DNA of 64,000 nt from an uncultured Bacteroidales bacterium (GCA_963732435.1 CAVSZL010000006.1:402579-466578), one strand, 5' to 3'. Positions 6,856 through 49,963 are shown, counted from the first letter of the stretch. Notes: generated by a model from the sequence alone, not told the origin. A program made the numbers and translations.

Positions 6856-8817
6856 CTATGAGTTGGTGGGTATAATTCTTTTTTGAATAGTTTGTTTAAT
6901 GATTATTGGGACCTTTTCTACCAGAGTATTTGAAATATCGAGTTGCAAAGCATTCACATCCGGAATACTTATAAACCTGGTCAGTCGCTGAAGTGCCAGA
7001 ATAAAATTCTCGGTATTGGTAAGTTCGAAATCGCGCAGCATTATTCTCTCAATAAGAATAAATCTGAAGTCCCCCGGAAAACCATGTTTCCTTAGAGAAT
7101 CATAACTACTCTCCAACTTTAATTCACCTGCTTTTGCCATATCGTCCAATACTTCCCTGAAGTAGCGATTAATTTTCGTATCAACCTTAAATCCCAGGTG
7201 AAAGTCAACACGGATAAGTACACCCGGAATTATCTGATTGATCTCATACTCAAAGCGATTGGGTTCATCAACCCGGTTGATATGAAGGAACCAGTATGTT
7301 TCAGCTCGTTTTGGTTGTTTGGTGAATATTGAATGGATTACTTTTGATTCAACCTGATCCTGACGGTTTGCTTTGATTAAATAAACCAGGTTAGTTGCAT
7401 ATTTAGAAACAGTCTTATCGTTCCTTAAGTCTTTAAATAATTCAATATAATCGTTAAGGTTGGAAAATGTAATATGTCTGTTTTTTATTTTTCTTCCGAA
7501 ATACCATCCGAACATAATGAGAAAATAAAGAGATGCAAGCATAATTGTAAACCAACCACCATGTTTGAATTTATCAAGGTTGGCTAACAGGAAACTAGCT
7601 TCAATGCAGAGAAAAACAAATAAAAACAAAATGATCAACCGGTAGTCCGTTCCAGCTTTATTAAGGTAGTATGACAATAATATTGTTGTCATTATCATTG
7701 TCATGGTTATAGCCAGGCCATAGGCAGCCTCCATTCCTGAGGATTCCTTAAAAAACAGCACCACCAGGCTGCACATTATCCATAAAGACCAGTTTACAAA
7801 AGGGAGATATACCTGTCCTTTTACAAAAGTGGGATAAAGTATTTTTACTTTTGGCCACAGATTGAGAGAAACAGCTTCACTCACAAGAGTAAATGATCCT
7901 GTAATAAGGGCCTGGCTGGCAATAATAGAGGCAGCTGTTGAAATTGCAATTCCTGCCAGAAGGAACCATCCCGGCATTAATGAAAAGAAAGGATTTACTT
8001 CTGCACCTGGTGTATAATTCATCATAAGCCAGGCACCCTGTCCAAAATAGTTGAGAAGGAGTGTAGTTTTAACAAAGATCCATGAGATCCGGATATTAGA
8101 TCTGCCGCAATGTCCAAGGTCAGAATAAAGAGCCTCGGCTCCGGTTGTACAAAGAAAGACAGCGCCCAGTAAGAGAAATCCTCCGGGGTATTCTGTAAGA
8201 AAACGAACTGCCAGCACTGGATTAAGAGCTCTTAGAATTTCGGGATGTTGAATTATCTGTAAAAAACCAAGCATCCCTATCATCATGAACCAGATAACCA
8301 TTATTGGGCCAAATGCCGCTCCAACAATTTTTGTTCCGAATTGCTGAATGAAAAAAAGAGCAGCAAAAATAAGCAGTACTATAGGTATAACAGGAATATC
8401 AGGATTGATAAGCCTTAATCCCTCAATTGAAGATGTAACAGTAATGGCAGGGGTTATTACCCCATCTGCAAGAAGGGTCGCTCCACCAATCATGGTCAGA
8501 ATGGCTACCCATATAGACTTCCTTCTGATGAGGGCGAAAAGGGCAAAAATGCCTCCTTCACCTTTATTATCAGCACGTAGTGTAATAAGAATATATTTTA
8601 TTGTTGTCTGAAGGGTCAGGGTCCAGAAGACACAAGAGAGTGATCCGTAGATCAAAAGTTCACCGAAACTCCCGGTGCTGCTGTTTACAATTGCCTTTAC
8701 AGTATAAAGCGGACTGGTACCGATGTCACCAAAAACAATTCCAAGTGTTACCAGAAGACCTGTAAAAGTGACTTTTTTTATTTCCAGATGATTATCAGTT
8801 CCCTTCATTTCAACCAT
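6856..8817 (-). CDS. kup: KUP/HAK/KT-family potassium transporter (copy 1)
   Basis: 653 aa, about 12 TM. Motifs 'GDIGTSPLY', 'ADNKGEGGIFALFALI', 'GAEALYSDLGHCG'. Confidence 0.9.
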   Translation of the reverse strand: MVEMKGTDNHLEIKKVTFTGLLVTLGIVFGDIGTSPLYTVKAIVNSSTGSFGELLIYGSLSCVFWTLTLQTTIKYILITLRADNKGEGGIFALFALIRRKSIWVAILTMIGGATLLADGVITPAITVTSSIEGLRLINPDIPVIPIVLLIFAALFFIQQFGTKIVGAAFGPIMVIWFMMIGMLGFLQIIQHPEILRALNPVLAVRFLTEYPGGFLLLGAVFLCTTGAEALYSDLGHCGRSNIRISWIFVKTTLLLNYFGQGAWLMMNYTPGAEVNPFFSLMPGWFLLAGIAISTAASIIASQALITGSFTLVSEAVSLNLWPKVKILYPTFVKGQVYLPFVNWSLWIMCSLVVLFFKESSGMEAAYGLAITMTMIMTTILLSYYLNKAGTDYRLIILFLFVFLCIEASFLLANLDKFKHGGWFTIMLASLYFLIMFGWYFGRKIKNRHITFSNLNDYIELFKDLRNDKTVSKYATNLVYLIKANRQDQVESKVIHSIFTKQPKRAETYWFLHINRVDEPNRFEYEINQIIPGVLIRVDFHLGFKVDTKINRYFREVLDDMAKAGELKLESSYDSLRKHGFPGDFRFILIERIMLRDFELTNTENFILALQRLTRFISIPDVNALQLDISNTLVEKVPIIIKQTIQKRIIPTNS

Positions 8818-8880
8818 ATAAGACGCATAATTATCACTTTCCGGGAGTTAAATCCTGAGTGACCAATCATTCGGAAAAAA

Positions 8881-10827
8881 TTATTGCATTCGTTTTATTC
8901 TCACCCCCTCCGGCTGACTAATAATAATAGGAACCTGTTCTTCAACAGTATTACAACTGTCTAACTGTAAAGCCTTAATATCAGATATGCAGAAAAGCCT
9001 TGAAATACTATGAAGTGAAAGAGTTAGATTTTCGATACTTGAAAGCTTATAATCCTGAGGCATCACCCTGTCAATAAGCACATATTTAAAATCAGCCGGC
9101 ATAGAATGTTTTCTTAAGGAGGGATAATTACTATCAATTGAAATTTGCTCCGTTTCAATAAGATCAGCTAAAATCTCCCTGAAGTAAAGGTTGATTTTGG
9201 GTTCCACTTTAAATCCCAGGTGAAAATCGACCCTTATTAATACTCTTGGAATTATTTCTGTTACCTGGTATTCAAATCTGTATGGTTCATCCACGCCGTT
9301 AACATGCAGTAGCCAGTAAGTATCTGCCCTCTTGGGTTGTTTCTGAAATATAGAAAATATCACTTTTGACTCTACCTGATCCTGCCTGTTGGCTTTAATT
9401 ATATAAACAAGATTAGTAGCTGTTTTAGGAACAGATTCATCCTGTGAGAGATCTTTAAACATTTCAGAATACTTCCTAAGATCAGTAAAGGTTACATATC
9501 TGTTCTTCAATTTTCTGCCAAAAAACCATCCATACATTATAATTATAAACAGAGAAGCCAAAAGAAGTGTAACCCATCCACCGTCATTAAATTTATGGAG
9601 GTTAGCTACCAGGAAACTTCCTTCAATCACCAGAAATGTAATAAAAATCAACAATACGATTCTGTGGTTTACACGCTTCTGAAATAAATAATATGTCAGT
9701 AGGAATGTGGTCATCAACTCTGTAATTGTAATAGCCAATCCATATGCAGCAGTCATATTTTCAGAAGCTTTGAAAAAGATAACTACAAGGCTGGTTGCTA
9801 TCCAGAGATACCAGTTAACGAAAGGCAGATAAACCTGGCCACGAACCAAACTTGGATTAAGGACTCTCACTTTAGGCCAGAAATTGAGTGAAACTGCCTC
9901 TTTTATTATTGTAAATGATCCGCTTATGATAGCCTGACTGGCTATGACAGACGCGGCTAATGCTATAAGAATACCCGGTAAAAGGAACCATTTAGGCATA
10001 ATTGAATAAAAAGGATTAATGCCTGCTTCTGTTGTTCTGTTAGCCATCAGCCAGGCTCCCTGTCCAAAATAATTTATGAGAAGTGTTATCTTAACAAAGA
10101 TCCATGAAACCTGAATATTTCTTCGTCCGCAATGACCCAGATCAGCATAAAGAGCCTCAGCTCCGGTTGTGCAGAGAAATACTGCTCCCAGGAGAATGAA
10201 TGCACCGGGGTACTCACTTAAAAAACTTATTGCATAACCTGGACTGATAGCTTTTAATATTTCCGGGGAATAAATTAACTGTGATAACCCTAATAATCCC
10301 AGCATTGAAAACCAGATTACCATAATCGGACCGAAATAGCTGCCAATCGAGTGGGACCCGAATTGCTGAATAAAAAAGAGCACTGCAAGAATAAACAAAA
10401 CTATCGGTATCACAGGTATTGAAGAATTGATTAATCTTAAACCCTCAATTGAAGAAGTCACTGTGATGGCCGGAGTTATTACTCCATCGGCCAGCAAAGC
10501 TGCTGCCCCCACCATTGTCAACAAGGCTACCCAAGATGATTTCTTTCTGATTAATGCAAAAAGTGCCAGAATTCCTCCCTCGCCCTTATTATCAGCGCGA
10601 AGAGCTATAATGATATACTTTGTTGTTGTTTGCAGAGTAAGCGTCCAGAAAATACAGGATAATGATCCGAATATCAGTAGTTCATTGAATTCAGTTCCTC
10701 CCCTTAAAATAGCCTTCATAACATAAAGGGGACTTGTTCCCAGGTCACCGAAAACAATACCAAGAGTAACCAATACTCCGGCAAAAGAGAGCTTCTTAAT
10801 ATCCATTTGCCTGTCCGTTCCGTTCAT
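8881..10827 (-). CDS. kup: KUP/HAK/KT-family potassium transporter (copy 2, tandem paralog)
   Basis: 648 aa, colinear with copy 1. Motifs 'GDLGTSPLY', 'ADNKGEGGILALFALI', 'GAEALYADLGHCG'. Confidence 0.9.
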   Translation of the reverse strand: MNGTDRQMDIKKLSFAGVLVTLGIVFGDLGTSPLYVMKAILRGGTEFNELLIFGSLSCIFWTLTLQTTTKYIIIALRADNKGEGGILALFALIRKKSSWVALLTMVGAAALLADGVITPAITVTSSIEGLRLINSSIPVIPIVLFILAVLFFIQQFGSHSIGSYFGPIMVIWFSMLGLLGLSQLIYSPEILKAISPGYAISFLSEYPGAFILLGAVFLCTTGAEALYADLGHCGRRNIQVSWIFVKITLLINYFGQGAWLMANRTTEAGINPFYSIMPKWFLLPGILIALAASVIASQAIISGSFTIIKEAVSLNFWPKVRVLNPSLVRGQVYLPFVNWYLWIATSLVVIFFKASENMTAAYGLAITITELMTTFLLTYYLFQKRVNHRIVLLIFITFLVIEGSFLVANLHKFNDGGWVTLLLASLFIIIMYGWFFGRKLKNRYVTFTDLRKYSEMFKDLSQDESVPKTATNLVYIIKANRQDQVESKVIFSIFQKQPKRADTYWLLHVNGVDEPYRFEYQVTEIIPRVLIRVDFHLGFKVEPKINLYFREILADLIETEQISIDSNYPSLRKHSMPADFKYVLIDRVMPQDYKLSSIENLTLSLHSISRLFCISDIKALQLDSCNTVEEQVPIIISQPEGVRIKRMQ

Positions 10828-13746: not shown

Positions 13747-13749
13747 GAA

Positions 13750-13856
13750 GCTGTAGAGGCTGTAAAAGCTATAGAGGCTGTAGAGGCTGTAAAGACATAA
13801 TGCATCAAAAGTCTTTAAAGCCCTTAAAGTTTTTATAGCTTTTACAGCCTTCTGCC
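13750..13856. repeat. Imperfect long inverted repeat built from 9-nt tandem units (GCTGTAGAG / GCTGTAAAA ...), immediately after the murA stop
   Basis: Five 9-mers at 13750-13794, a loop at 13797-13810, and a complementary arm at 13811-13856 with the same 9-nt periodicity. Confidence 0.75.
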
Positions 13857-13877
13857 AAAATGTCAAACAACAATGGT

Positions 13878-13893
13878 TGGCAGGTATTTTGAT
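13878..13893 (+). promoter_or_regulatory. Degenerate -24/-12-like element TGGCAG-GTATT-TTGA, 35 nt upstream of grpE
   Basis: GG and TTG are at sigma-54 spacing, but the -12 GC reads GA. Same architecture as the element upstream of hsp20. Confidence 0.3.
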
Positions 13894-15741: not shown

Positions 15742-15904
15742 AAATCCGGAATCTCACATTAAGCATATCTCTGCTATTATCTTAACTCCATTTGGAAATC
15801 TCCGCATAATAAAATAACTAATAAAGAGTTGCAGTGAGAAGTAAAGAGTTTCATTGAGTTTTTTTATATTTACATCTCAATGTGAAATAATTAAATTCCT
15901 TCTC

Positions 15905-16822
15905 ATGGCTCTTTTTGAAGCGAAGAACATTACCAAACAATATGGGACCCAACTAGCCCTTGATAATGTAAGCATTTCAGTACCAGAACAATGCATTTAC
16001 GGCTTGCTTGGACCGAACGGTGCAGGTAAAACCACACTAATAAGGATAATCAACCAGATCACAGGTCCTGATTCAGGCGAGCTGTATCTAGATGGAAAAA
16101 AACTTATCCCTTCAGATGTCCAGAAAATAGGATACCTGCCTGAGGAGAGAGGATTATATAAAAAGATGAAAGTGGGAGAACAGGCCCTTTACTTTGCCCA
16201 ATTGAAAGGACTTTCCAAAGAGGAGGCAATGCGCCGGCTTAAATACTGGTTCAAAAAACTTGAAATTACCGAATGGTGGGGTAAGAAAATCGAAGAATTA
16301 TCGAAAGGAATGGCACAGAAGGTTCAGTTTGTAACAACAGTACTTCATGAACCAAGGCTTCTTATTTTTGATGAGCCATTCTCCGGATTTGATCCGGTAA
16401 ATACAAATATCATTAAAAAGGAGATCCTCTTTCTCCGTGAAAAAGGTGCAACAATTATCTTTTCAACGCATAACATGGAATCCGTTGAGGAACTTTGTGA
16501 TAATATTACTCTGATAGATAAATCAAAGACCCTGCTGGAGGGAAGTGTAAATGAAATAAGGAGTAAATGGGCTGCAAATGAATACGATCTGGTGTTTTCA
16601 GGAAACGTGGTAATCGAAAGTAACGGTCAATACAATATTCTAAAGAAGCAGACAGATAATAACAAAAGTATGTTCAGGTTGAAAACATCTGATGATATCA
16701 ATACTAATGATATACTTAAAAATGTTATGAAATCAGGGAATGTAATCTCTTTTAATCCGGCCCTCCCTTCGATGAATGAGATCTTTTTAAGAGTTATCGA
16801 AACCCGTAATCAAACAACCTAA
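15905..16822 (+). CDS. ABC transporter ATP-binding protein (ABC-2 / NatA-like)
   Basis: Walker A 'GPNGAGKTT', signature 'LSKGMAQK', Walker B 'LLIFDEP'. ATG at 15905 preferred to the upstream TTG of the ORF track. Confidence 0.85.
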   Translation: MALFEAKNITKQYGTQLALDNVSISVPEQCIYGLLGPNGAGKTTLIRIINQITGPDSGELYLDGKKLIPSDVQKIGYLPEERGLYKKMKVGEQALYFAQLKGLSKEEAMRRLKYWFKKLEITEWWGKKIEELSKGMAQKVQFVTTVLHEPRLLIFDEPFSGFDPVNTNIIKKEILFLREKGATIIFSTHNMESVEELCDNITLIDKSKTLLEGSVNEIRSKWAANEYDLVFSGNVVIESNGQYNILKKQTDNNKSMFRLKTSDDINTNDILKNVMKSGNVISFNPALPSMNEIFLRVIETRNQTT

Positions 16823-16844
16823 TTAATCTTGCAACTACGACAAT

Positions 16845-18206
16845 ATGAATAAGATATCTGTGATAATCAAGAGAGAATACGTTACCAGGGTAAGAAAGAA
16901 ATCATTTATTATTATGACTATCCTTGCCCCTGTTATAATGGCTGCCATACTTGTTTTACCTACAGTTTTGATGATGAATCAGGATGGTGATTATAAAAAG
17001 ATTGCTGTAATTGAAGACAAATCAGATTTGTTCAAGGGTGTTCTCAAAAACACCAAGGATGCTGAATTCGTATACCTTGAAAATGTGGGACTGGAAGAGA
17101 TGAAATCCTCATTTGTTAAGGCGGGTTATTATGGCATTCTGTTTATCTCACCCGAACTTGTAAATACACCCAATGCAATTCAGCTTATCTCAAAGCAACA
17201 GCCACCAATCGGACTTCTTCAACATATCGAGAACTCTATGGAAAAAGAGATTGAAAAGCAAAAACTAATGGCTTACAAGATTGATAACCTCGATGAAATA
17301 ATGAAAAATGTCGAAACCAAAGTCTCAATTCAGACAATTAAGATCGATGATTCAGGTATGGTGAAAGAGACCAGTACAGGGATAGCTATGGCTCTGGCTT
17401 ATATCCTTGGATTTCTGATGTATATGCTGGTATTCATTTTTGGATCGCAGGTGATGAGGGGAGTTATTGAGGAAAAAACCAGCAGAGTTGTTGAAGTGAT
17501 AATCTCTTCAGTAAAACCTATACAATTAATGCTGGGTAAAATCATTGGAATTGCACTGGTTGGGCTTACCCAATTCATGATATGGATTATCCTTACAATT
17601 GCTATTGCAACAGTAATTAAAGGTACAATTTTAAAAGAGAAAGATATAACCGAGATGAGTCAGTCAATTCCCCAAAATCTCATGTCAACAGATCAGCAGC
17701 AGTTAACGGCAATTACTGAAACTTCAGCGGCCTCTCCGCAACTTGCCGAGTTTTCCAAAATGTTTGATAATGCTATGAATCAGCCATGGGGTCTGATTAT
17801 AATCTGTTTTATCTTCTACTTTATTACAGGTTACCTTCTTTATGCATCAGTTTTCGCGGCTATAGGATCAGCAGTCGATAATGAAACCGAAACTCAACAA
17901 TTTATGCTCCCGGTGGCAATGCCCATAATACTCGCTCTTATGGTTGCAATGGGAACAATGCAAAATCCTGAAAGCTCACTCTCATTCTGGTGTTCGATGA
18001 TACCTCTGACCTCCCCGATAGTTATGATGGCACGGATACCTTTTGGGGTACCTTACTGGCAGATAGCCATTTCGATGGTACTAATGCTTGTTACATTTAT
18101 GGGATTTGTATGGATGGCTGCAAAAGTTTACAGAACAGGAATACTTATGTATGGGAAAAAAACCTCATGGAAAGAGATGTGGAAGTGGTTGAGATATAGT
18201 GGGTAA
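16845..18206 (+). CDS. ABC-2-type transporter permease (NatB-like)
   Basis: N-terminal TM, a large extracytoplasmic loop, then five C-terminal TM segments. Immediately follows the ATPase gene. Confidence 0.75.
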   Translation: MNKISVIIKREYVTRVRKKSFIIMTILAPVIMAAILVLPTVLMMNQDGDYKKIAVIEDKSDLFKGVLKNTKDAEFVYLENVGLEEMKSSFVKAGYYGILFISPELVNTPNAIQLISKQQPPIGLLQHIENSMEKEIEKQKLMAYKIDNLDEIMKNVETKVSIQTIKIDDSGMVKETSTGIAMALAYILGFLMYMLVFIFGSQVMRGVIEEKTSRVVEVIISSVKPIQLMLGKIIGIALVGLTQFMIWIILTIAIATVIKGTILKEKDITEMSQSIPQNLMSTDQQQLTAITETSAASPQLAEFSKMFDNAMNQPWGLIIICFIFYFITGYLLYASVFAAIGSAVDNETETQQFMLPVAMPIILALMVAMGTMQNPESSLSFWCSMIPLTSPIVMMARIPFGVPYWQIAISMVLMLVTFMGFVWMAAKVYRTGILMYGKKTSWKEMWKWLRYSG

Positions 18207-18238
18207 AAGATAAAAGATAAAAGATAAAAGACAAAAAT
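18204..18238 (+). repeat. A-rich heptamer tandem repeat (TAAAAGA x4 plus a degenerate unit), ending 8 nt before the activator gene ATG
   Basis: Read directly from the sequence. It starts at the permease stop codon. Confidence 0.85.
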
Positions 18239-18245
18239 AATTAAT

Positions 18246-19421
18246 ATGTCAAGGATACTGGTTATTGATGATGAACGTTCCATAAGGAATACGCTGAAGG
18301 AGGTTCTGGAATACGAAAAGCATGAAGTGGATCTTGCAGAAGATGGACCTGCCGGGCTTGAGATGTTTTCAGCAAACAGCTACGATATTATCCTTTGCGA
18401 TATTAAGATGGCCAAGATGGATGGAATTGAGGTTCTCGCTAAAATCATTGAAATAAGTACAGATATTCCTGTAGTCATGATTTCGGGACATGGCAATATT
18501 GATACAGCAGTTGAAGCGATAAAAAAAGGAGCATATGATTTCCTTGAAAAACCTCTTGACCTCAACAGACTTCTCATTACTATACGAAATGCAATGGATA
18601 AGTCTTCTCTTATCTCTCAGACCCAGGTCCTGAAAACCAAGGTCAGCAAAATGTATGAGATTGTTGGTGAATCGGAGGCAATTATGCGGGTAAAAAACAT
18701 GATCGACAGGGTTGCCACTACAGAGGCCAGAGTGCTTATAACCGGATCTAATGGCACAGGGAAAGAGCTTGTTGCACACCAGATCCATGAAAAAAGCAAC
18801 CGGTCCAGGGGTCCGTTCGTAGAGGTAAACTGTGCTGCAATCCCTTCTGAACTTATTGAAAGTGAACTTTTCGGGCATGAAAAAGGTTCATTCACATCAG
18901 CCATAAAGCAGAGAATAGGCAAGTTCGAACAGGCAAACGGAGGTACACTTTTTCTGGATGAGATTGGTGATATGAGTCTCTCCGCACAGGCTAAAGTGCT
19001 GAGGGCGCTGCAGGAAAACAAAATAACCAGGGTTGGTTCAGATAAGGATATTAATGTTAATGTAAGGGTGATTACAGCAACAAATAAGAATATTAAAAAA
19101 GAGATTGACAATAATGGATTCCGGGAAGACCTGTACCACAGACTCAGTGTTATTTTGATCCATGTCCCTACCCTTAACGAAAGAGAAGAAGACATCCCTC
19201 TGCTTGCTGAACACTTCAATTCCTTAATATGCAATGAGTACGGGATGAGTAAAAAAGTTATTAAAAAAGATGCCATTAAAGAACTTCAGAGAATAGAGTG
19301 GACAGGTAACATCAGGGAGTTCAGAAATGTACTTGAAAGACTCATTATTCTCTGCCCGAATGAAATTACCGGAAAGGATGTTATAGCATATGCCAAACCC
19401 GTTTCAGGCACAAATGTATAG
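18246..19421 (+). CDS. Sigma-54-dependent response regulator (REC + AAA+ domains) lacking a C-terminal HTH DNA-binding domain
   Basis: REC domain (DD, 'ILCDIKM', 'KKGAYDFLEKP'). Walker A 'GSNGTGKE', Walker B 'LFLDEIGD', 'GHEKGSFTSA' in place of GAFTGA. The protein ends about 30 aa after the AAA+ lid (391 aa). Confidence 0.85.
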   Translation: MSRILVIDDERSIRNTLKEVLEYEKHEVDLAEDGPAGLEMFSANSYDIILCDIKMAKMDGIEVLAKIIEISTDIPVVMISGHGNIDTAVEAIKKGAYDFLEKPLDLNRLLITIRNAMDKSSLISQTQVLKTKVSKMYEIVGESEAIMRVKNMIDRVATTEARVLITGSNGTGKELVAHQIHEKSNRSRGPFVEVNCAAIPSELIESELFGHEKGSFTSAIKQRIGKFEQANGGTLFLDEIGDMSLSAQAKVLRALQENKITRVGSDKDINVNVRVITATNKNIKKEIDNNGFREDLYHRLSVILIHVPTLNEREEDIPLLAEHFNSLICNEYGMSKKVIKKDAIKELQRIEWTGNIREFRNVLERLIILCPNEITGKDVIAYAKPVSGTNV

Positions 19422-37420: not shown

Positions 37421-37516
37421 ATCCATTTTTTTGTAATTCCCCAATAATAAACTTTATGAAAATCAATCATGGTATGGTGAAATGGCATAAAAATAAGTGA
37501 GCAAATTAACATAAGT

Positions 37517-37562
37517 GTCATTATGGCAGTTATATTTTTATTTTTATGTCATATTGGCAGTT
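37517..37562 (+). promoter_or_regulatory. Direct repeat GTCATTATGGCAGTT / GTCATATTGGCAGTT, 31 bp apart, upstream of hsp20
   Basis: Copies at 37517-37531 and 37548-37562, read directly from the sequence. Confidence 0.5.
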
Positions 37563-37571
37563 TATGTGATT

Positions 37572-40895: not shown

Positions 40896-43046
40896 TTATT
40901 TTTTGTCCTTAGGTTTGGTATTCTTTGCAGTCTTTTTACCTGTTGCATTTTCAGGTGACTCTTTTTTGACCTTCAATTCTGGTTCTGAGTTCTCTGTTAA
41001 ATTATTTGCTGATCTTTTCTTCTTTTTTGTTTTACCAGGAGTATTATTTTTTTGTTCAGCAGCGGCAATACTGAGGGCTTCTTTCTCTTCCTTTAACAGA
41101 TCAGCTTTGCGTTTTCCGAAAATCCTCTCAAGGTCTTCACTGAATATTACCTCTTTTTCAAGAAGAATTTCAGCAAGCTCTGTCAACCCCTTAATATTGT
41201 TTTTAAGGACCTCTTTTGCCTTTGTATAGGACTCGACAATTATTTGATTAACCTCAGAGTCAATGAGTTCAGCTGTCTTTTCACTGTATGGCTTTGTGAA
41301 GCCAAAATCAGACTGCCCTGATGAATCGTAAAAACTTATATTACCAATCTTTTCACTCATCCCAAAGAAGGAGACCATGGCATAAGCCTGCTTGGTAATC
41401 TTCTCAAGATCACTGAGAGCCCCGGTTGAAATTTTTCCAAATATAAGTTCTTCTGAAGCCCTTCCTCCCAGAGCATATGCCATCTCATCAAGTATCTGCT
41501 CACGTGTTGTCAGTTGTCTTTCCTCAGGAAGATACCAGGCAGCACCAAGAGCTCTTCCCCGTGGTATGATTGTTACTTTCAGCAGAGGGCTTGCATGTTC
41601 AAGCATCCAGCTAACGGTAGCATGACCTGCTTCGTGATATGCAATTGTCTTCTTTTCCTCTTTTGAAATTATCTTTGTTTTTCTTTCCAATCCTCCAACA
41701 ATACGGTCGACAGCATCCAGAAAATCCTGTCTTTCCACAACAGTTTTATTTTTTCTGGCTGCAATCAGAGCGGCCTCATTACAAACATTTGCGATATCAG
41801 CACCTGAAAAACCCGGTGTTTGTTTAGCCATGAAGGCGATATCGAAGTTTTTCTCAAGTTTTATCGGTCGAAGGTGTACCTTAAATATAGCTTCACGTTC
41901 AGTAATATCAGGCAGTTCAACATGAATCTGCCTGTCAAAACGACCTGCCCTCATCAGAGCTCTGTCGAGGATATCTGCTCTGTTTGTTGCGGCCAGAATA
42001 ATTACCCCCATGTTGGTTCCGAAACCGTCCATCTCTGTCAGCAACTGGTTCAGGGTATTCTCCCTCTCATCGTTTGAACCGAAGTTTGCATTTCTTCCAC
42101 GTGCCCGACCTACTGCATCAATCTCATCAATAAAGACTATACACGGAGCCTTTTCCTTTGCCTGTTTGAAAAGATCTCTTACCCTTGAAGCGCCTACTCC
42201 AACAAACATTTCAACAAAATCTGAACCTGATATAGAGAAGAAAGGCACATTAGCTTCGCCTGCCACAGCTTTGGCGAGCATGGTCTTTCCTGTTCCGGGA
42301 GGACCTATCAGAAGAGCACCCTTTGGAATTTTACCTCCAAGCTGAGTATATTTCTTCGGATTCTTAAGAAAATCAACGATCTCCATTACTTCTGTCTTTG
42401 CCTCTTCAAGTCCGGCAACATCATTGAAGTTGAGTTTAACATTGGTATCTTTATCGAAGATCTGGGCACGTGACTTACCTACACTGAAAATACCTCCTGC
42501 TCCTCCTGCTCCTCCTCCTGACATCCGTTTCATCATAAACAACCACAAACCTATCAGCAGTACAGGAAACAACAACCATGAGAGAATATCTCCGACCCAG
42601 TTTTTCCGTGTCTGGTAATCAGGATAGATTAACTCCTTTTCAGCATAGCCTGCACTTTTCTGAGCCTCTATAAGGAAAGGTTCAAAACTGCTAATATCTC
42701 CGATATTGTAGGTGAAGTGCGGTTTTGGAACCGACATACCAAAGCCTGTACCACCGGGCTTAGGAAGCTTAGGATATCTCCCGGATTCAACAGCCTCTTT
42801 CTTAAGATAGATTTCAGCCTGTTCCTTATTTATTACTATGAGCTTTTCAATATCCCGGTTAGCAATCATCTCTTTAATCTCACTGGTAGAGGTCTTCTGT
42901 ACGCTTCCCCCGGAATATAAAACCTGAAAAAGAATTACTGAAACAGCGAGAATTGCAAAAATCCAATTGGTATTAAACTTTGGTTTACTGTTTTTATCAG
43001 ATTTCTTTTCAGGATTCTGATTATTATTATTTGTATCCCTTGTCAT
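40896..43046 (-). CDS. ftsH: ATP-dependent zinc metalloprotease FtsH
   Basis: Walker A 'GPPGTGKT', an SRH region, the zinc site 'HEAGHA', and a lysine-rich C-terminal tail. Confidence 0.95.
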
Positions 43047-43057
43047 AAATATTTAAC

Positions 43058-43432
43058 TTACTGTGTTTTATCTTCAACTTTATTTATTGTGGCATCTGCC
43101 CATAGCGACTCAAGACTGTAAAAATTTCTATATTCCTCAATAAAAACATGAACAATAACATTACCATAATCAAGAAGTACCCAGAAACAATTATCAAGTC
43201 CTTCGATATGAGATGGTTTCTCTTTTACACCCTTTATTACAGTTTCTTCTATTGAATCACATATTGCGCTAACCTGGGTTCCTGACTGAGCGTGACAAAT
43301 AACAAAATAATCTGCTATTCTGTTTTCAAGCTTTCTCAGGTCAATTTTTATAACATTATCTCCTTTCTTCTCAAAGATTCCTTTTACAACACTATCTAAA
43401 AGTTTTTCTGTACTGTCTGTTTTTTTCTTCAT
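43058..43432 (-). CDS. rsfS: Ribosome silencing factor RsfS
   Basis: 124 aa, 'DYFVICHAQSGTQ' and 'DYGNVIVHVF'. Confidence 0.85.
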   Translation of the reverse strand: MKKKTDSTEKLLDSVVKGIFEKKGDNVIKIDLRKLENRIADYFVICHAQSGTQVSAICDSIEETVIKGVKEKPSHIEGLDNCFWVLLDYGNVIVHVFIEEYRNFYSLESLWADATINKVEDKTQ

Positions 43433-43461: not shown

Positions 43462-43469
43462 CAAAAGTA
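43462..43469 (-). promoter_or_regulatory. Candidate -7 box TACTTTTG, 29 nt before the rsfS ATG
   Basis: Exact TAnnTTTG match on the minus strand, downstream of the sigma-54 element. Confidence 0.4.
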
Positions 43470-43504: not shown

Positions 43505-43520
43505 TGCAATTTCAATGCCA
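43505..43520 (-). promoter_or_regulatory. Sigma-54 (RpoN) -24/-12 promoter TGGCAT-TGAAA-TTGCA upstream of rsfS-ftsH
   Basis: The minus strand reads TTGGCATTGAAATTGCAA. GG and GC are at the consensus spacing (TGGCAC-N5-TTGCW). Intergenic and correctly oriented. Confidence 0.65.
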
Positions 43521-45971: not shown

Positions 45972-46589
45972 ATGTATAAAGTCCACTTTGAAAACAGATT
46001 CATAGTATTAAGCTCTGAACCTGACCGGTTACAAAAGTACAGCTTATTCCATAAATTCTATGCTACTACTGAACTTTATAAATTAATCAGTGATTTTCAG
46101 GCAGATACGACCATTTCCTCTATTAATATTTATGGAACAAACATCCTCCACTTATGGAAAATATTCAGAATTTATTTCACAGAGGTAGGAGCAGCAGGAG
46201 GACTTGTAAAACACGCCTCAGGCAGATACCTCTTTATTGAAAAAAAAGGCAGACTCGATCTCCCGAAAGGACATCTTGAACCAGATGAAGAGCCCGAAAC
46301 CTGTGCATTAAGAGAGGTTTCTGAAGAGTGTGGTTTAAGTGGTCATACGATTATTAAACCTCTAAATCCCACATATCATACTTACACCTGGGAAGGGATA
46401 TCTTACCTTAAAAAAACCAGCTGGTTTCTAATGAATTATGATGGGGAGATGGTTATTAAACCTCAGAAATCCGAGGGAATCACAAAAGTTGAGTGGCTTT
46501 TTCCGGATGACCTGAATAAGATAAAGATTAATGCCTGGCTCTCTCTGATGGAAGTAATCAACTCATCGGTCCTAGGAACATTCAGTTAA
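45972..46589 (+). CDS. NUDIX hydrolase
   Basis: Nudix box 'GHLEPDEEPETCALREVSEECGL'. Confidence 0.8.
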   Translation: MYKVHFENRFIVLSSEPDRLQKYSLFHKFYATTELYKLISDFQADTTISSINIYGTNILHLWKIFRIYFTEVGAAGGLVKHASGRYLFIEKKGRLDLPKGHLEPDEEPETCALREVSEECGLSGHTIIKPLNPTYHTYTWEGISYLKKTSWFLMNYDGEMVIKPQKSEGITKVEWLFPDDLNKIKINAWLSLMEVINSSVLGTFS

Positions 46590-47068
46590 TCTGCATTCCC
46601 CTTGTATTTCTTAAGGTTTATCGCTGCCGGAACAAATCTGGAAGCATCGCCTCCGCTTCTCAGAATATCGCGCACGATAGTTGAATTTATATAAGAATGA
46701 TCAGGTGCAGTTAGCATAAAGACCGATTCTATATCCGGAGCCATTGATTTATTTACCTGCCCGATGGCTCTTTCAAACTCGAAGTCAGCAGAAGTTCTTA
46801 ATCCCCTTAAGAGATATCCTGCGCCTTTCTTTCTGCAGTAATCAACAGTCAGCCCCTCATAATGATCAACTTTTACACTGGGGATATCCTTAAACACAGT
46901 GGAGATCATCTCTTTTCTGACAGAGAGTGGATAGTAACTCTTTTTCAGGGCATTACTGCCGACGGCAATAATTATCTCATCAAAAAGGTTAATTGCTCTT
47001 CTTACGATTGATTCATGCCCGATAGTGAATGGATCAAATGATCCGGGAAATACTGCGATCTTTTTCAT
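46586..47068 (-). CDS. coaD: Phosphopantetheine adenylyltransferase
   Basis: 'FPGSFDPFTIGHESIV' (T/HxGH motif). 160 aa. Its ATG overlaps the lon stop by 4 nt. Confidence 0.9.
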   Translation of the reverse strand: MKKIAVFPGSFDPFTIGHESIVRRAINLFDEIIIAVGSNALKKSYYPLSVRKEMISTVFKDIPSVKVDHYEGLTVDYCRKKGAGYLLRGLRTSADFEFERAIGQVNKSMAPDIESVFMLTAPDHSYINSTIVRDILRSGGDASRFVPAAINLKKYKGNAD

Positions 47069-49527
47069 TCAAACGAAATTACTTTAGGATTCTTTACCTT
47101 CTGCTTAAGCAAAGATAGTTCAAGGACTTCCATTATTGATTCAACATAATGAAACTTTAATCCCTTTATATAAATCTCCTTAATACTCTCAACATCTTTT
47201 CTGTTATCAGCTGAAACTATTATCTCCTTGATACTTGCACGCTTAGCTGCAAGAATTTTCTCCTTTATACCTCCAACAGGCAATACTTTTCCCCTAAGTG
47301 TGATCTCACCTGTCATTGCCAGAAATTTCTTAACTTTTCGCTGTGTAAAGGCAGATGCAATAGAAGCAGCCATTGTTATACCTGCAGATGGACCGTCTTT
47401 TGGGATTGCTCCCTCAGGAACATGTATATGGATATTCCACTTATCAGAAAAGCTATCAGGCAGCGCAAGCATATCTGCATTTGATTTGAGGTATTCAAGA
47501 GCAATTACTGCCGATTCTTTCATCACATCTCCCAGATTTCCGGTCAGAGTCAGCTTGCCGGTTCCTTTGCTCAGACTTGTTTCCACGAACAATATTTCAC
47601 CACCTGCAGTGGTCCATGCAAGCCCTGTAACAACACCGGCCTGATCATTTCCTGAATAAATGTCACGGTTATACTTAGGAGGTCCAAGCATTTCAGTCAA
47701 AGCCGGCTGAGTGACTGTCACATCATATTTTGTCTCTGAAGCAATGTTTTTCGCCGTAACTCTAACAATCTTTGCAAGTCGTTTATCGAGTTCCCTTACA
47801 CCTGATTCTCTTGTGTATTTTTCGATTATTGTTTCGATCACTTTATTATCAACTGTAATCTGATCGGAAGTTACACCGTGATTCTCAAGTTGTTTTGGCA
47901 ACAGATGACGTTTGGCTATTTCTAGTTTTTCTTCAACTATATAGCCCGTTATTTCGATTAATTCCATTCTGTCACGCAAGGCAGGACTAATAGTCCCAAG
48001 GTTGTTGGCAGTAGCGATGAACAGCACTTTTGACAGATCATACTCCATCTCAAGGAAGTTATCAAAAAAAGTCCCGTTCTGCTCCGGATCAAGAACTTCA
48101 AGCAAGGCAGAAGAAGGATCACCCCTGAAGTCCTGTCCTACTTTATCAATTTCATCCAGTATAAAAACAGGATTCGAGGAACCGGCTCTCTTAATATTCT
48201 GTATGATTCTTCCGGGCATTGCTCCAATATATGTTTTTCTGTGTCCCCTGATTTCGGCTTCATCGTGCAATCCACCAAGTGACATTCTGACATATTTTCT
48301 ATCAAGTGCCTTTGCCACAGATCTGCCCAGCGAAGTTTTACCTACTCCGGGAGGACCATACAGGCAAAGTATGGGTGATTTCAGATCGCCTTTAAGTTTT
48401 AATACAGCAAGATGTTCAAGAATTCTCTCCTTAACTTCATCAAGTCCAAAGTGATCCCAGTCCAGAACATTTCTGGCATTTTTCAGATCGAGATTATCCT
48501 GCGAATAATAATTCCATGGCAGATCCAGCAGGGTCTGAATATAATTTACCTGCACCGAATACTCGGCAGCTGCCGGATTAAGACGATGGAGCTTATCAAG
48601 TTCTTTATTAAAAACTTTTTTTACATCCTCGCTCCATAATTTTTCTCCTCCTTTTTTCCGGTACTCCTCAATTTCTTTTTCAACGGGGTTGCCTCCAAGT
48701 TCATTCTGAATAGTCTTCATCTGCTGATGAAGTAAAAATTCCCTTTGCTGCTGATCAAGATCGCTTTTAACTTTTGACTGCAATTCATTTTTAAGTTCAA
48801 GGACCTGAATCTCCTGAACAAGGAATTCCAGAAGCATAAATCCCCTGTCCCTTAAACTGTTAACTTCGAGAAGCTTTTGCTTATCCTGAACTTTAACATC
48901 AGTATTGGAACAGATAAAATTTATAAGGTATGTATTATTCTCTATGTTTTTTATTGCAAATGAGGCTTCAGGGCTAATGTTTGGATTTATCTTTATTATC
49001 TTAAGAGAGAGATCTTTCAGAGATCCAACTATTGCATCAAAATCTTTACTTAAACCGTCTGGTTTTACTTCAGGAATAGATCGAACTTTTGCCAAAAAGT
49101 ACGGGTCATCGGAAACAAGCTCCTGTAAAACCATTCTTTTTCGACCCTGAATGATTGCAGTTGTTGAGCCATCAGGCATCTCGAGCAGCTTAACTATCTG
49201 TCCGATTGTTCCGACAGAGTGAAGGTCCTGGAATTCAGGATTCTCAATATCCGGATCTTTTTGAGCAACTGTACCAACTATTTTGCTGTTCCTGTAAGCA
49301 TCCTTTATAAGTTGAATTGACCTTGGTCGTCCAATAGAGATGGGAAGGACAACCCCGGGGAAAAGCACTGTGTTCCTGAGCGAGAGTATTGGAATAGAAT
49401 CAGGAACCTCAACCTCCTCAAGCTCACCATCATCACCATCGGCAATAATAGGAATAATATCTCCCTCTCCATCCAGAATTTCCGGAAATAATATCTCTCT
49501 CACTGGTTTACTGAATTTCTTTTCCAT
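47065..49527 (-). CDS. lon: ATP-dependent Lon protease
   Basis: LAN domain, Walker A 'GPPGVGKTS', and protease Ser in 'PKDGPSAGITMA'. 820 aa. Confidence 0.95.
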   Translation of the reverse strand: MEKKFSKPVREILFPEILDGEGDIIPIIADGDDGELEEVEVPDSIPILSLRNTVLFPGVVLPISIGRPRSIQLIKDAYRNSKIVGTVAQKDPDIENPEFQDLHSVGTIGQIVKLLEMPDGSTTAIIQGRKRMVLQELVSDDPYFLAKVRSIPEVKPDGLSKDFDAIVGSLKDLSLKIIKINPNISPEASFAIKNIENNTYLINFICSNTDVKVQDKQKLLEVNSLRDRGFMLLEFLVQEIQVLELKNELQSKVKSDLDQQQREFLLHQQMKTIQNELGGNPVEKEIEEYRKKGGEKLWSEDVKKVFNKELDKLHRLNPAAAEYSVQVNYIQTLLDLPWNYYSQDNLDLKNARNVLDWDHFGLDEVKERILEHLAVLKLKGDLKSPILCLYGPPGVGKTSLGRSVAKALDRKYVRMSLGGLHDEAEIRGHRKTYIGAMPGRIIQNIKRAGSSNPVFILDEIDKVGQDFRGDPSSALLEVLDPEQNGTFFDNFLEMEYDLSKVLFIATANNLGTISPALRDRMELIEITGYIVEEKLEIAKRHLLPKQLENHGVTSDQITVDNKVIETIIEKYTRESGVRELDKRLAKIVRVTAKNIASETKYDVTVTQPALTEMLGPPKYNRDIYSGNDQAGVVTGLAWTTAGGEILFVETSLSKGTGKLTLTGNLGDVMKESAVIALEYLKSNADMLALPDSFSDKWNIHIHVPEGAIPKDGPSAGITMAASIASAFTQRKVKKFLAMTGEITLRGKVLPVGGIKEKILAAKRASIKEIIVSADNRKDVESIKEIYIKGLKFHYVESIMEVLELSLLKQKVKNPKVISFE

Positions 49528-49576
49528 CTATTTATTATTCACACTCATTATTCTGTCTGTTCAATTGAGATTGCGT

Positions 49577-49584
49577 CAAAATTA
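49577..49584 (-). promoter_or_regulatory. Candidate -7 box TAATTTTG, 49 nt before the lon ATG
   Basis: Exact TAnnTTTG match on the minus strand, downstream of the sigma-54 element. Confidence 0.4.
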
Positions 49585-49619
49585 CATAATATTTTTACAT
49601 CAATCCAGAAAGATGAATA

Positions 49620-49635
49620 AGCAATGATTATGCCA
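49620..49635 (-). promoter_or_regulatory. Sigma-54 (RpoN) -24/-12 promoter TGGCAT-AATCA-TTGCT upstream of lon-coaD
   Basis: The minus strand reads CTCTGGCATAATCATTGCTT. Consensus spacing is preserved. It lies between the rpmE2 terminator and lon. Confidence 0.65.
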
Positions 49636-49644
49636 GAGAATTTT

Positions 49645-49677
49645 ACAAAAACAAAAAGCCCCGTGTGAAGGGGCTTT
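49645..49677 (-). terminator. Intrinsic terminator of rpmE2
   Basis: Minus strand: stem AAAGCCCC / GGGGCTTT with a 7-nt loop, followed by TTTTTGTTTTTGT. Confidence 0.8.
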
Positions 49678-49699
49678 CATATTTCATTTATTCCGGATG

Positions 49700-49963
49700 T
49701 CATTTCTTTTTCCCAACATGATCCTTATAACGGTTCATAAATTTATCAACCCTTCCTGCAGTATCAACCAGTTTCATTTTACCTGTATAAAAAGGATGAG
49801 ATGTATTGGAAATTTCAAGCTTAAGAAGAGGATACTCTTTCCCGTCTTCCCATTTAATGTTCTCCTTGGAAGGTGCTGTTGATTTACTCATAAAGGTAAT
49901 TCCATTTGACATATCCTGAAATACCACAAACCTGTAATTGCTGGGATGAATTCCGTTTTTCAT
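49700..49963 (-). CDS. rpmE2: 50S ribosomal protein L31, type B (no zinc-binding CxxC)
   Basis: '[17 protein letters not shown]...' with a C-terminal 'VDKFMNRY'. 87 aa. Confidence 0.9.

Follow-up and report, generated by a model that had tools for sequence, protein, structure and literature searches.

A probable sigma-54 promoter, in tandem with a sigma-A box, ahead of lon-coaD in an uncultured Bacteroidales lineage

We propose that the element TGGCATAATCATTGCT ahead of the lon-coaD operon of an uncultured Bacteroidales bacterium (49635..49620, minus strand) is a genuine sigma-54 (RpoN) promoter, P1, which would act in tandem with a sigma-A promoter, P2, as part of a proteostasis regulon. We put the probability of this reading at roughly 0.8. 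It draws on an exact match to the sigma-54 consensus, on the retention of the element in relatives, and on its close similarity to a promoter with a mapped start in Flavobacterium psychrophilum. What was observed is the sequence itself, its rarity, conservation and geometry, the identities of the genes and the domain structure of the activator; that sigma-54 uses the site, where transcription starts, which signal induces it and which protein activates it is inferred. The analysis covered a window of 64,000 nucleotides, by which we mean the whole stretch of DNA that was analysed, together with related loci.

The lon-coaD promoter element and its conservation

The sequence was compared to the sigma-54 consensus TGGCAC-N5-TTGCW, and it matches the form TGGCAYN5TTGCW exactly, with the GG at 49634-49633 and the GC at 49622-49621 separated by exactly 10 nt (GG-N10-GC). 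The element is intergenic and directed towards lon, the first gene behind P1 and P2 (47065..49527, minus strand; endopeptidase La, TIGR00763, E = 3.8e-272), the ATG of which (A at 49527) lies 93 nt past the last base of the motif. The following gene, coaD (46586..47068, minus strand; TIGR01510, E = 1.1e-49), overlaps the lon stop by 4 nt, and co-transcription of the two genes is therefore probable. On the other side, the -24 element is abutted by the intrinsic terminator of rpmE2 (49644..49678, minus strand), which consists of a hairpin (49678..49654) followed by a T-run, with about 8 nt between its end and the motif. The rpmE2 gene itself (type B L31, assigned with NCBIfam) occupies 49700..49963. 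A terminator-like hairpin also adjoins the lon motif in most of the relatives. The initial annotation had described a canonical sigma-54 promoter at this position, situated directly after the rpmE2 terminator, about 94 nt before the lon ATG and followed by a sigma-A -7 box; our measurements bear out the motif, its position (93 nt before the ATG) and the box, and the element proved to be conserved.

To assess the conservation, a scan with the Lon protein was performed, with one genome retained per species. It returned 80 loci, 78 of them with enough upstream DNA, from uncultured Bacteroidales and Bacteroidota MAGs originating from fens, lakes, sediments and digesters, with Lon proteins 85-91% identical to the one in the window. 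The element was found to be exact in 67 of the 78 species and to differ by one base in 8 more, and no recognisable site was present in the remaining 3 (L031, L047 and L054). At the positions of TGGCA and TTGC the information is close to 2 bits, and it drops to about 0 in the 40 nt of upstream flank. The inner spacer, AAT[C/G]A, is conserved beyond the need of the sigma-54 contacts alone. Among the relatives, the element lies 72 to 337 nt ahead of the ATG, and the length of the 5'UTR varies with it. Much of this variation is explained by A-rich short tandem repeats (AAAGAYA / GTAAAAA) close before the start codon, which were observed in the lon 5'UTRs of L001-L012 and L040, and also at 18207..18245 of the window.

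An upstream enhancer (UAS) is typically placed about 80-150 bp upstream of a sigma-54 promoter. The conservation profile of the relatives shows no conserved element in the 40 nt preceding the lon motif, and beyond these 40 nt come the rpmE2 terminator and then the rpmE2 coding sequence. The absence of an enhancer, if borne out, would fit an enhancer-independent activator. Downstream of the motif, the idea that the lon leader might form a structured RNA or riboswitch was considered and rejected: an Rfam scan of the window returned a tRNA only, with no structured RNA in the leader, and the predicted leader of 95 nt folds like its shuffled versions (z = -0.17).

A mapped counterpart in Flavobacterium psychrophilum

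The closest known system is that of F. psychrophilum, in which 5' ends were mapped by Guérin et al. (2021, ISME Commun; PMC9723704). Sigma-54-type starts were reported there at lon, groESL, dnaK, grpE-dnaJ, htpG, clpB and skp, constituting a protein quality-control regulon (motif SM4); according to the supplement, ftsH and secA are co-expressed with this cluster, without a detected start. The F. psychrophilum lon promoter (ATGGCACAATCCTTGAC / ATGGCACAATCCTTGACTTA) has its TSS 12 nt past the -12 base and produces a 116-nt leader, and TTGA or CTGA is found at the -12 position of skp (TTGGCACGATAGTTGA), clpB (TTGGAATAACAATTGA) and groES (TTGGCATAATTTCTGA) (PMC9723704). When the F. psychrophilum lon element, TGGCACAATCCTTGA, is set against the one described here, TGGCAYAATCATTGC, the two are nearly the same, AATC spacer included. 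By analogy with the mapped start, the sigma-54 TSS of lon is predicted near 49609, 12 nt past the C of the -12.

The two cases have in common the phylum, the gene lon, and its companions grpE-dnaJ and ftsH (co-expressed there). They differ in several respects. F. psychrophilum belongs to the class Flavobacteriia, whereas the organism described here belongs to an uncultured Bacteroidales lineage. The -12 is TTGA at the F. psychrophilum lon promoter but TTGC at both lon and rsfS here. No start was found for ftsH in F. psychrophilum, whereas the rsfS-ftsH element here is canonical and fully conserved, and where the F. psychrophilum table lists a single lon start, the lon element described here has a conserved sigma-A box 36 nt further on. 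Finally, an activator was not assigned to the F. psychrophilum regulon (PMC9723704), whereas a candidate is encoded in our window.

The comparison also has a bearing on the eight variant lon elements, which comprise TTGA (three species), TTGT (two), CGGCAC (two) and TTGCC (one). TTGA or TTGT, present in place of TTGC in 5 species, would weaken a classical -12 element, though TTGA is normal in Flavobacterium. The notion that these variants are dead sites was rejected, since mapped sigma-54 promoters of F. psychrophilum carry TTGA or CTGA at the -12; by the same analogy, lon orthologues with TTGA or TTGT probably retain a functional element.

Sigma-54-like elements ahead of grpE and hsp20

Two further candidate elements were found in the window. 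The first, TGGCAGGTATTTTGAT (13878..13893, plus strand), is of the Flavobacterium type, with TTGA at the -12, and is located 31 nt ahead of grpE-dnaJ; it is conserved (TGGCAGGTAWTTTGAT) in three relatives, L162, L163 and L165. No TAnnTTTG was found downstream of it, either in the window or in these relatives. The second, TGGCAGTTTATGTGAT (37555..37570, plus strand), is a candidate sigma-54-like element 73 nt ahead of hsp20. The -12 variant of Bacteroidota (TTGA/TGA) would fit the element at grpE and possibly that at hsp20.

A conserved inverted repeat, CCTGCCAA-N16-TTGGCAGG, is present in the relatives, with the grpE element as its right arm; in the window the repeat C(C)TGCCAA-N16/18-TTGGCAG(G) spans 13849..13893 (plus strand), and its right arm, as in L162, L163 and L165, is the -24 block. 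The left arm, together with a TTGTCAA upstream of grpE, is conserved in all four species. This inverted repeat may serve as an operator, or as an enhancer that overlaps the promoter. The murA-grpE interval (13747..13850, plus strand) additionally contains tandem 9-mers (GAGGCTGTA-like) after the murA stop, and a long inverted repeat, GGCTGTAAAAGCTATA ... TATAGCTTTTACAGCC. The region upstream of hsp20 (37480..37570, plus strand) contains three copies of TGGCA. The second and third belong to a direct repeat, TGTCATWWTGGCAGTT, at a spacing of about 31 nt, and a TGA at the -12 position accompanies the third alone (37555..37570).

A sigma-A box at a narrowly constrained distance

The lon element is followed by the sequence TAATTTTG (49584..49577, minus strand), a Bacteroidota sigma-A -7 box of the form TAnnTTTG, located 36 nt past the C of the -12 and assigned to promoter P2. 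The sigma-A consensus of Bacteroidota comprises -33 TTTG and -7 TAnnTTTG (PMC7366714), and the -33 box has been reported to be dispensable. In place of a clear -33 TTTG, lon has only a weakly conserved TTTC (49608..49611, minus strand), which the anchored conservation profile places 23 nt upstream of the box and at the predicted sigma-54 start. With the G of the box placed at -3, following the F. psychrophilum tables, the sigma-A TSS of lon is predicted near 49574, about 35 nt past the predicted sigma-54 start at 49609. The footprints of the two holoenzymes would overlap at lon.

Either TAATTTTG or TAAATTTG is present as the box in 67 of 75 lon relatives, 14-279 nt ahead of the ATG. In 66 of the 75 loci the lon box lies 36-38 nt past the C of the -12 (36 nt in 41 loci, 37 in 15 and 38 in 10), and at rsfS the corresponding distance is mostly 39 nt (55 of 75 loci; mostly 38-40, with a range of 35-42). 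The spacer between the sigma-54 element and the sigma-A box is constrained in length, though its first ~20 nt vary in sequence. In the window, the spacing is 36 nt at both lon and rsfS. That this identity marks one composite element was rejected in view of the ranges found in the relatives; the exact 36-nt identity is partly a coincidence of this genome, and the narrow conserved range is real. The ...ATGTAATTTTG box is retained in the three species without a lon sigma-54 element, as expected of an independent basal promoter. L045 and L080 carry insertions of about 58 nt and about 12 nt, respectively, between the lon sigma-54 element and the sigma-A box, and L045 has in addition TTGT at the -12. 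These two loci represent natural tests of whether the promoter spacing matters.

Tandem promoters of this kind have a precedent in E. coli, where the sigma-70 and sigma-54 promoters glnAp1 and glnAp2 provide basal and inducible expression of one operon. At glnA the sigma-70 promoter is the upstream one, at a distance of about 115 bp, and the activator represses it. By contrast, at lon the sigma-54 promoter is upstream, the predicted starts are about 35 nt apart, and the distance is constrained.

The geometry raises the question of whether sigma-54 holoenzyme might bind the lon site mainly as a poised, non-productive complex, which would occlude or modulate the overlapping sigma-A promoter in a negative or buffering role and would not itself make lon mRNA. 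With the P2 start ~35 nt past the P1 start, a sigma-A polymerase (~-55 to +20) would cover the -12 of P1, and a spacer of constrained length is in keeping with two complexes that interact; moreover, non-productive sigma-54 binding is reported to be widespread in E. coli (PMC4591121). Yet the homologous element of F. psychrophilum gives rise to a mapped transcript with its 116-nt leader, and at grpE the element stands alone. We consider mainly non-productive binding to be improbable, and note that it is compatible with a sigma-54 promoter at lon, of which it would be a refinement more than a true rival.

A sister element ahead of rsfS-ftsH

The second exact consensus match in the window, TGGCATTGAAATTGCA (43505..43520, minus strand), lies ahead of the rsfS-ftsH operon (40896..43432, minus strand; rsfS, 43058..43432, TIGR00090; ftsH, 40896..43046, TIGR01241), and is likewise followed, 36 nt past the C of its -12, by a TAnnTTTG box, TACTTTTG (43462..43469, minus strand). 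A divergent gene is located 65 nt upstream of this element. A metagenome scan with RsfS returned 80 contigs with RsfS proteins 71-91% identical, 74 of them with enough upstream DNA. The element was kept in all 74 usable relatives, in 68 exactly and in 6 with one base changed; its consensus there is TGGCAYTGAAATTGCA, it lies about 90 nt ahead of the ATG, and its upstream flank is randomised. The lon and rsfS promoters are 6 kb apart in the window. In 15 of the lon loci (L005, L009, L013, L018, L022, L024, L027, L039-L041, L046, L068 and L076-L078) the rsfS sigma-54 element lies about 3 kb past the point where lon ends, on its strand, near position 8437 (in L013, 5515), which indicates that the two sigma-54 operons are linked across the family.

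A comparison of the two elements helps to decide what kind of protein they may serve. They have in common only the TGGCAY and TTGCW blocks, at the sigma-54 spacing, and their spacers are different (AATCA at lon, TGAAA at rsfS). Shared contact blocks with different spacers are the pattern that a common sigma factor would predict, and not the one predicted by a common sequence-specific transcription factor. This weighs against an alternative in which TAATTTTG would be the sole promoter and TGGCA-N6-TTGC, at about -61 to -47 relative to this sigma-A promoter, would be bound by a conventional transcription factor acting as an activator or a repressor. Such a site would account for the narrow spacing to the -7 box at lon and rsfS despite the variable intervening sequence, for a -12 C that is replaceable in some species, and for the conserved, partly palindromic inner spacer of the lon element (CAAT-S-ATTG); indeed, conservation of the lon spacer combined with a length-constrained distance to the sigma-A box would also fit a factor site at about -50 to -60 of a sigma-A promoter. 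But the rsfS site has no palindrome, and what it shares with lon is confined to the sigma-54 contact blocks at exact sigma-54 spacing; the grpE element has no TAnnTTTG downstream of it at all; the mapped F. psychrophilum lon TSS lies 12 nt past the -12 and not 50 nt; and an exact mimic of the sigma-54 consensus in a genome with a gene for a sigma-54 activator would be a remarkable coincidence. A conventional factor site is accordingly improbable in our estimation. The narrower proposal of a CAAT-S-ATTG palindromic operator in the lon element was rejected, save as a minor rival, with the palindrome absent from the rsfS site and imperfect in F. psychrophilum.

Rarity of the motif

The pattern TGGCAYN5TTGCW has 2 exact matches in the 64 kb (both strands), compared to 0.16 expected, and at least 2 exact matches were reached in 0 of 100 shuffles. 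Both copies fall in the 4.5 kb of intergenic DNA of the window, both are oriented to the next gene (lon-coaD and rsfS-ftsH), and both precede operons for AAA+ proteases. With one mismatch allowed, 8 matches were found compared to 4.6 expected, which is not significant, and all the extra ones are intragenic. A relaxed Bacteroidota pattern, [TC]GG[CT]A-N6-[TCG]TG[ACT], has only 4 intergenic matches in the window, 31-93 nt ahead of grpE, hsp20, rsfS and lon. All four are correctly oriented, and these are the four proteostasis operons of the window; groESL, dnaK, clpB and htpG are absent from it. Among its other genes, the window contains two adjacent paralogues of Kup-type K+ transporters (653 and 648 aa; 6856..10827, minus strand).

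The 831 kb of related loci contain 150 exact consensus matches, and every one of them, the 15 rsfS elements past lon included, is a lon or rsfS site. A lon match that is due to chance, or is a decaying functionless relic, could be argued from its loss in L031, L047 and L054 and its one-base variants in eight species, but a site kept in 75 of 78 species amid randomised flanks, with two copies at promoter position where 0.16 were expected and no other exact match in the related DNA, leaves this reading effectively refuted by the conservation data.

A sigma-54 activator without a DNA-binding domain

If the sites are sigma-54 promoters, they would depend on an activator, and a candidate is present in the window: a response-regulator-type sigma-54 activator of 391 aa without a DNA-binding domain (18246..19421, plus strand; Pfam, NCBIfam). 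It comprises a REC domain (residues 4-113), a sigma-54 AAA+ domain (139-305; PF00158, E = 4.6e-71) and a lid (312-375). The protein ends 16 aa past the lid and aspA starts 40 nt after the stop, which leaves no room for an HTH. The receiver residues DD8-9, D52, S80 and K102 are intact. The sigma-54 contact loop reads GSFTSA and contains the F/T residues; as for departures from the usual loop, A2->S has been found in active LevR, and G5->S is a putative allowed replacement (Francke 2011; PMC3162934). The best 120 homologues are 88-96% identical; 116 of them have a length of 391 aa, 119 carry GSFTSA, and HTH_8 was detected in none of the 120. Distant representatives (~47-65% identity, 386-425 aa) are also without HTH_8, and relatives of 459-460 aa possess it.

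The gene order grpE-dnaJ-ABC ATPase-ABC-2 permease-activator-aspA is kept in all contigs examined. In the window (15854..19421, plus strand), the activator gene follows the pair of ABC ATPase and ABC-2 permease genes at a distance of 39 nt. There is no histidine kinase gene adjoining the activator at this locus, and the ABC transporter might be part of the signalling input of the activator. We found no sigma-54 site in the dnaJ-ABC spacer that would point to autoregulation of the ABC and activator genes. In one relative (L165:4931..5200), a long array of GGAGTGA-type heptamers separates the ABC permease gene from that of the activator. As for sigma-54 itself, a search of six-frame translations of the window and 167 related loci with an RpoN-box regex returned no rpoN ORF; rpoN is presumably present in the genome, given the conserved activator and the phylum.

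Activators of type Ic, without a DNA-binding domain, are known from Helicobacter pylori (FlgR) and Chlamydia (CtcC) (Francke 2011, PMC3162934), and enhancer-independent activation has been documented for FlgR (Brahmachary 2004, as cited in PMC3162934). Like these proteins, the activator described here combines REC and AAA+ domains with the lack of an HTH. Unlike them, it has a GSFTSA loop, is encoded in a block with grpE-dnaJ and has putative targets there and at the other proteostasis operons, whereas FlgR and CtcC serve flagellar or developmental genes. An enhancer-independent activator would fit promoters that lack a conserved upstream element, with a terminator in this position at lon and a divergent gene at rsfS. 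That this particular protein acts on the promoters described here is a tentative suggestion, with odds somewhat short of even, which is based on their co-occurrence and on the conserved block with grpE-dnaJ.

A model for lon-coaD expression

In the model that we favour, P2 (TAATTTTG) would supply the basal level of Lon. Sigma-54 RNA polymerase on the -24/-12 element would form a closed complex that fires only upon ATP hydrolysis by an AAA+ activator, and this ATP-dependent firing of P1 would provide additional, signal-dependent lon expression. The rsfS-ftsH operon would be driven by the same arrangement, and a TTGA-type sigma-54 element would serve grpE-dnaJ, possibly also hsp20. Together, these promoters would represent the Bacteroidales version of the F. 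psychrophilum sigma-54 protein-quality-control regulon. The likeliest activator would be the response regulator at 18246..19421, which, once phosphorylated at D52, would act from solution with no enhancer.

A more ambitious version of this model can be formulated. At lon and rsfS-ftsH, the sigma-54 promoter would then make up, with the sigma-A promoter, one cassette of fixed geometry, in which a poised closed complex and the housekeeping polymerase would compete for overlapping DNA, and a single phosphorylation-controlled REC-AAA+ protein without a DNA-binding domain would fire all the proteostasis promoters in an enhancer-free manner. We regard this version as doubtful. If it were true, the activator would be the functional counterpart of sigma-32/HrcA for a phylum without an identified heat-shock master regulator.

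Relation to published work

The initial annotation had noticed that two AAA+ protease operons in the window share the same architecture of a sigma-54 promoter plus a sigma-A box, that degenerate sites exist at grpE and hsp20, and that the window encodes an activator without a DNA-binding domain. These observations hold. It had also seen in them a hint of an undescribed regulatory system, and this part is not supported, since sigma-54 control of chaperones and proteases has already been reported in the F. psychrophilum regulon (PMC9723704) and in a PSSM survey (PLoS One 2025; PMC12316311). What we describe is thus a further instance, and a well-supported one, of a known kind of regulation. The survey predicts sigma-54 promoters at GroEL/ES, DnaK/J, GrpE, IbpA and HtpG, and at the proteases COG0542, COG0466 (Lon) and COG1066, with an enrichment in Flavobacteriia and Bacteroidia (and predicted for Planctomycetia) (PMC12316311). 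It is purely computational and at the COG level, does not mention FtsH (COG0465) or RsfS, and has tandem sigma-A promoters and activators without a DNA-binding domain outside its scope. For Bacteroides thetaiotaomicron, the survey cites Sabree 2009 for sigma-54-dependent grpE and groES (PMC12316311); the TSS map of Ryan 2020 for the same organism makes no mention of sigma-54.

Regulation of a lon gene by an NtrC-like protein has been described in another setting. In Myxococcus xanthus, lonD is activated by the HsfB/HsfA phosphorelay (Ueki and Inouye 2002, as cited in PMC9109919). The likeness lies in a heat-shock lon paralogue under the direct control of an NtrC-like response regulator. The difference is that M. 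xanthus belongs to another phylum and employs a dedicated regulator, not a phylum-wide chaperone regulon. HsfA is reportedly a DNA-binding enhancer-binding protein.

Three elements of the present findings look new: rsfS-ftsH as a member of the regulon, the sigma-54-then-sigma-A tandem with its length-constrained spacing (36-40 nt), and the highly conserved REC-AAA+ activator without a DNA-binding domain in the conserved grpE-dnaJ block. Membership of rsfS-ftsH would account for the co-expression of ftsH with the F. psychrophilum sigma-54 cluster despite its undetected start, and the activator beside grpE-dnaJ is a concrete candidate for a master regulator. The description of how chaperones and proteases are controlled in Bacteroidota is only beginning, and to our knowledge this phylum lacks sigma-32. 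The family to which the lon loci belong is abundant in fens, lake sediments and digesters, and in it the flavobacterial sigma-54 lon promoter has been kept almost base for base, in Bacteroidales that are uncultured and distant from Flavobacterium. This conservation of the lon promoter across Flavobacterium and Bacteroidales makes a stronger case for sigma-54 control of proteostasis as an ancestral trait of the phylum.
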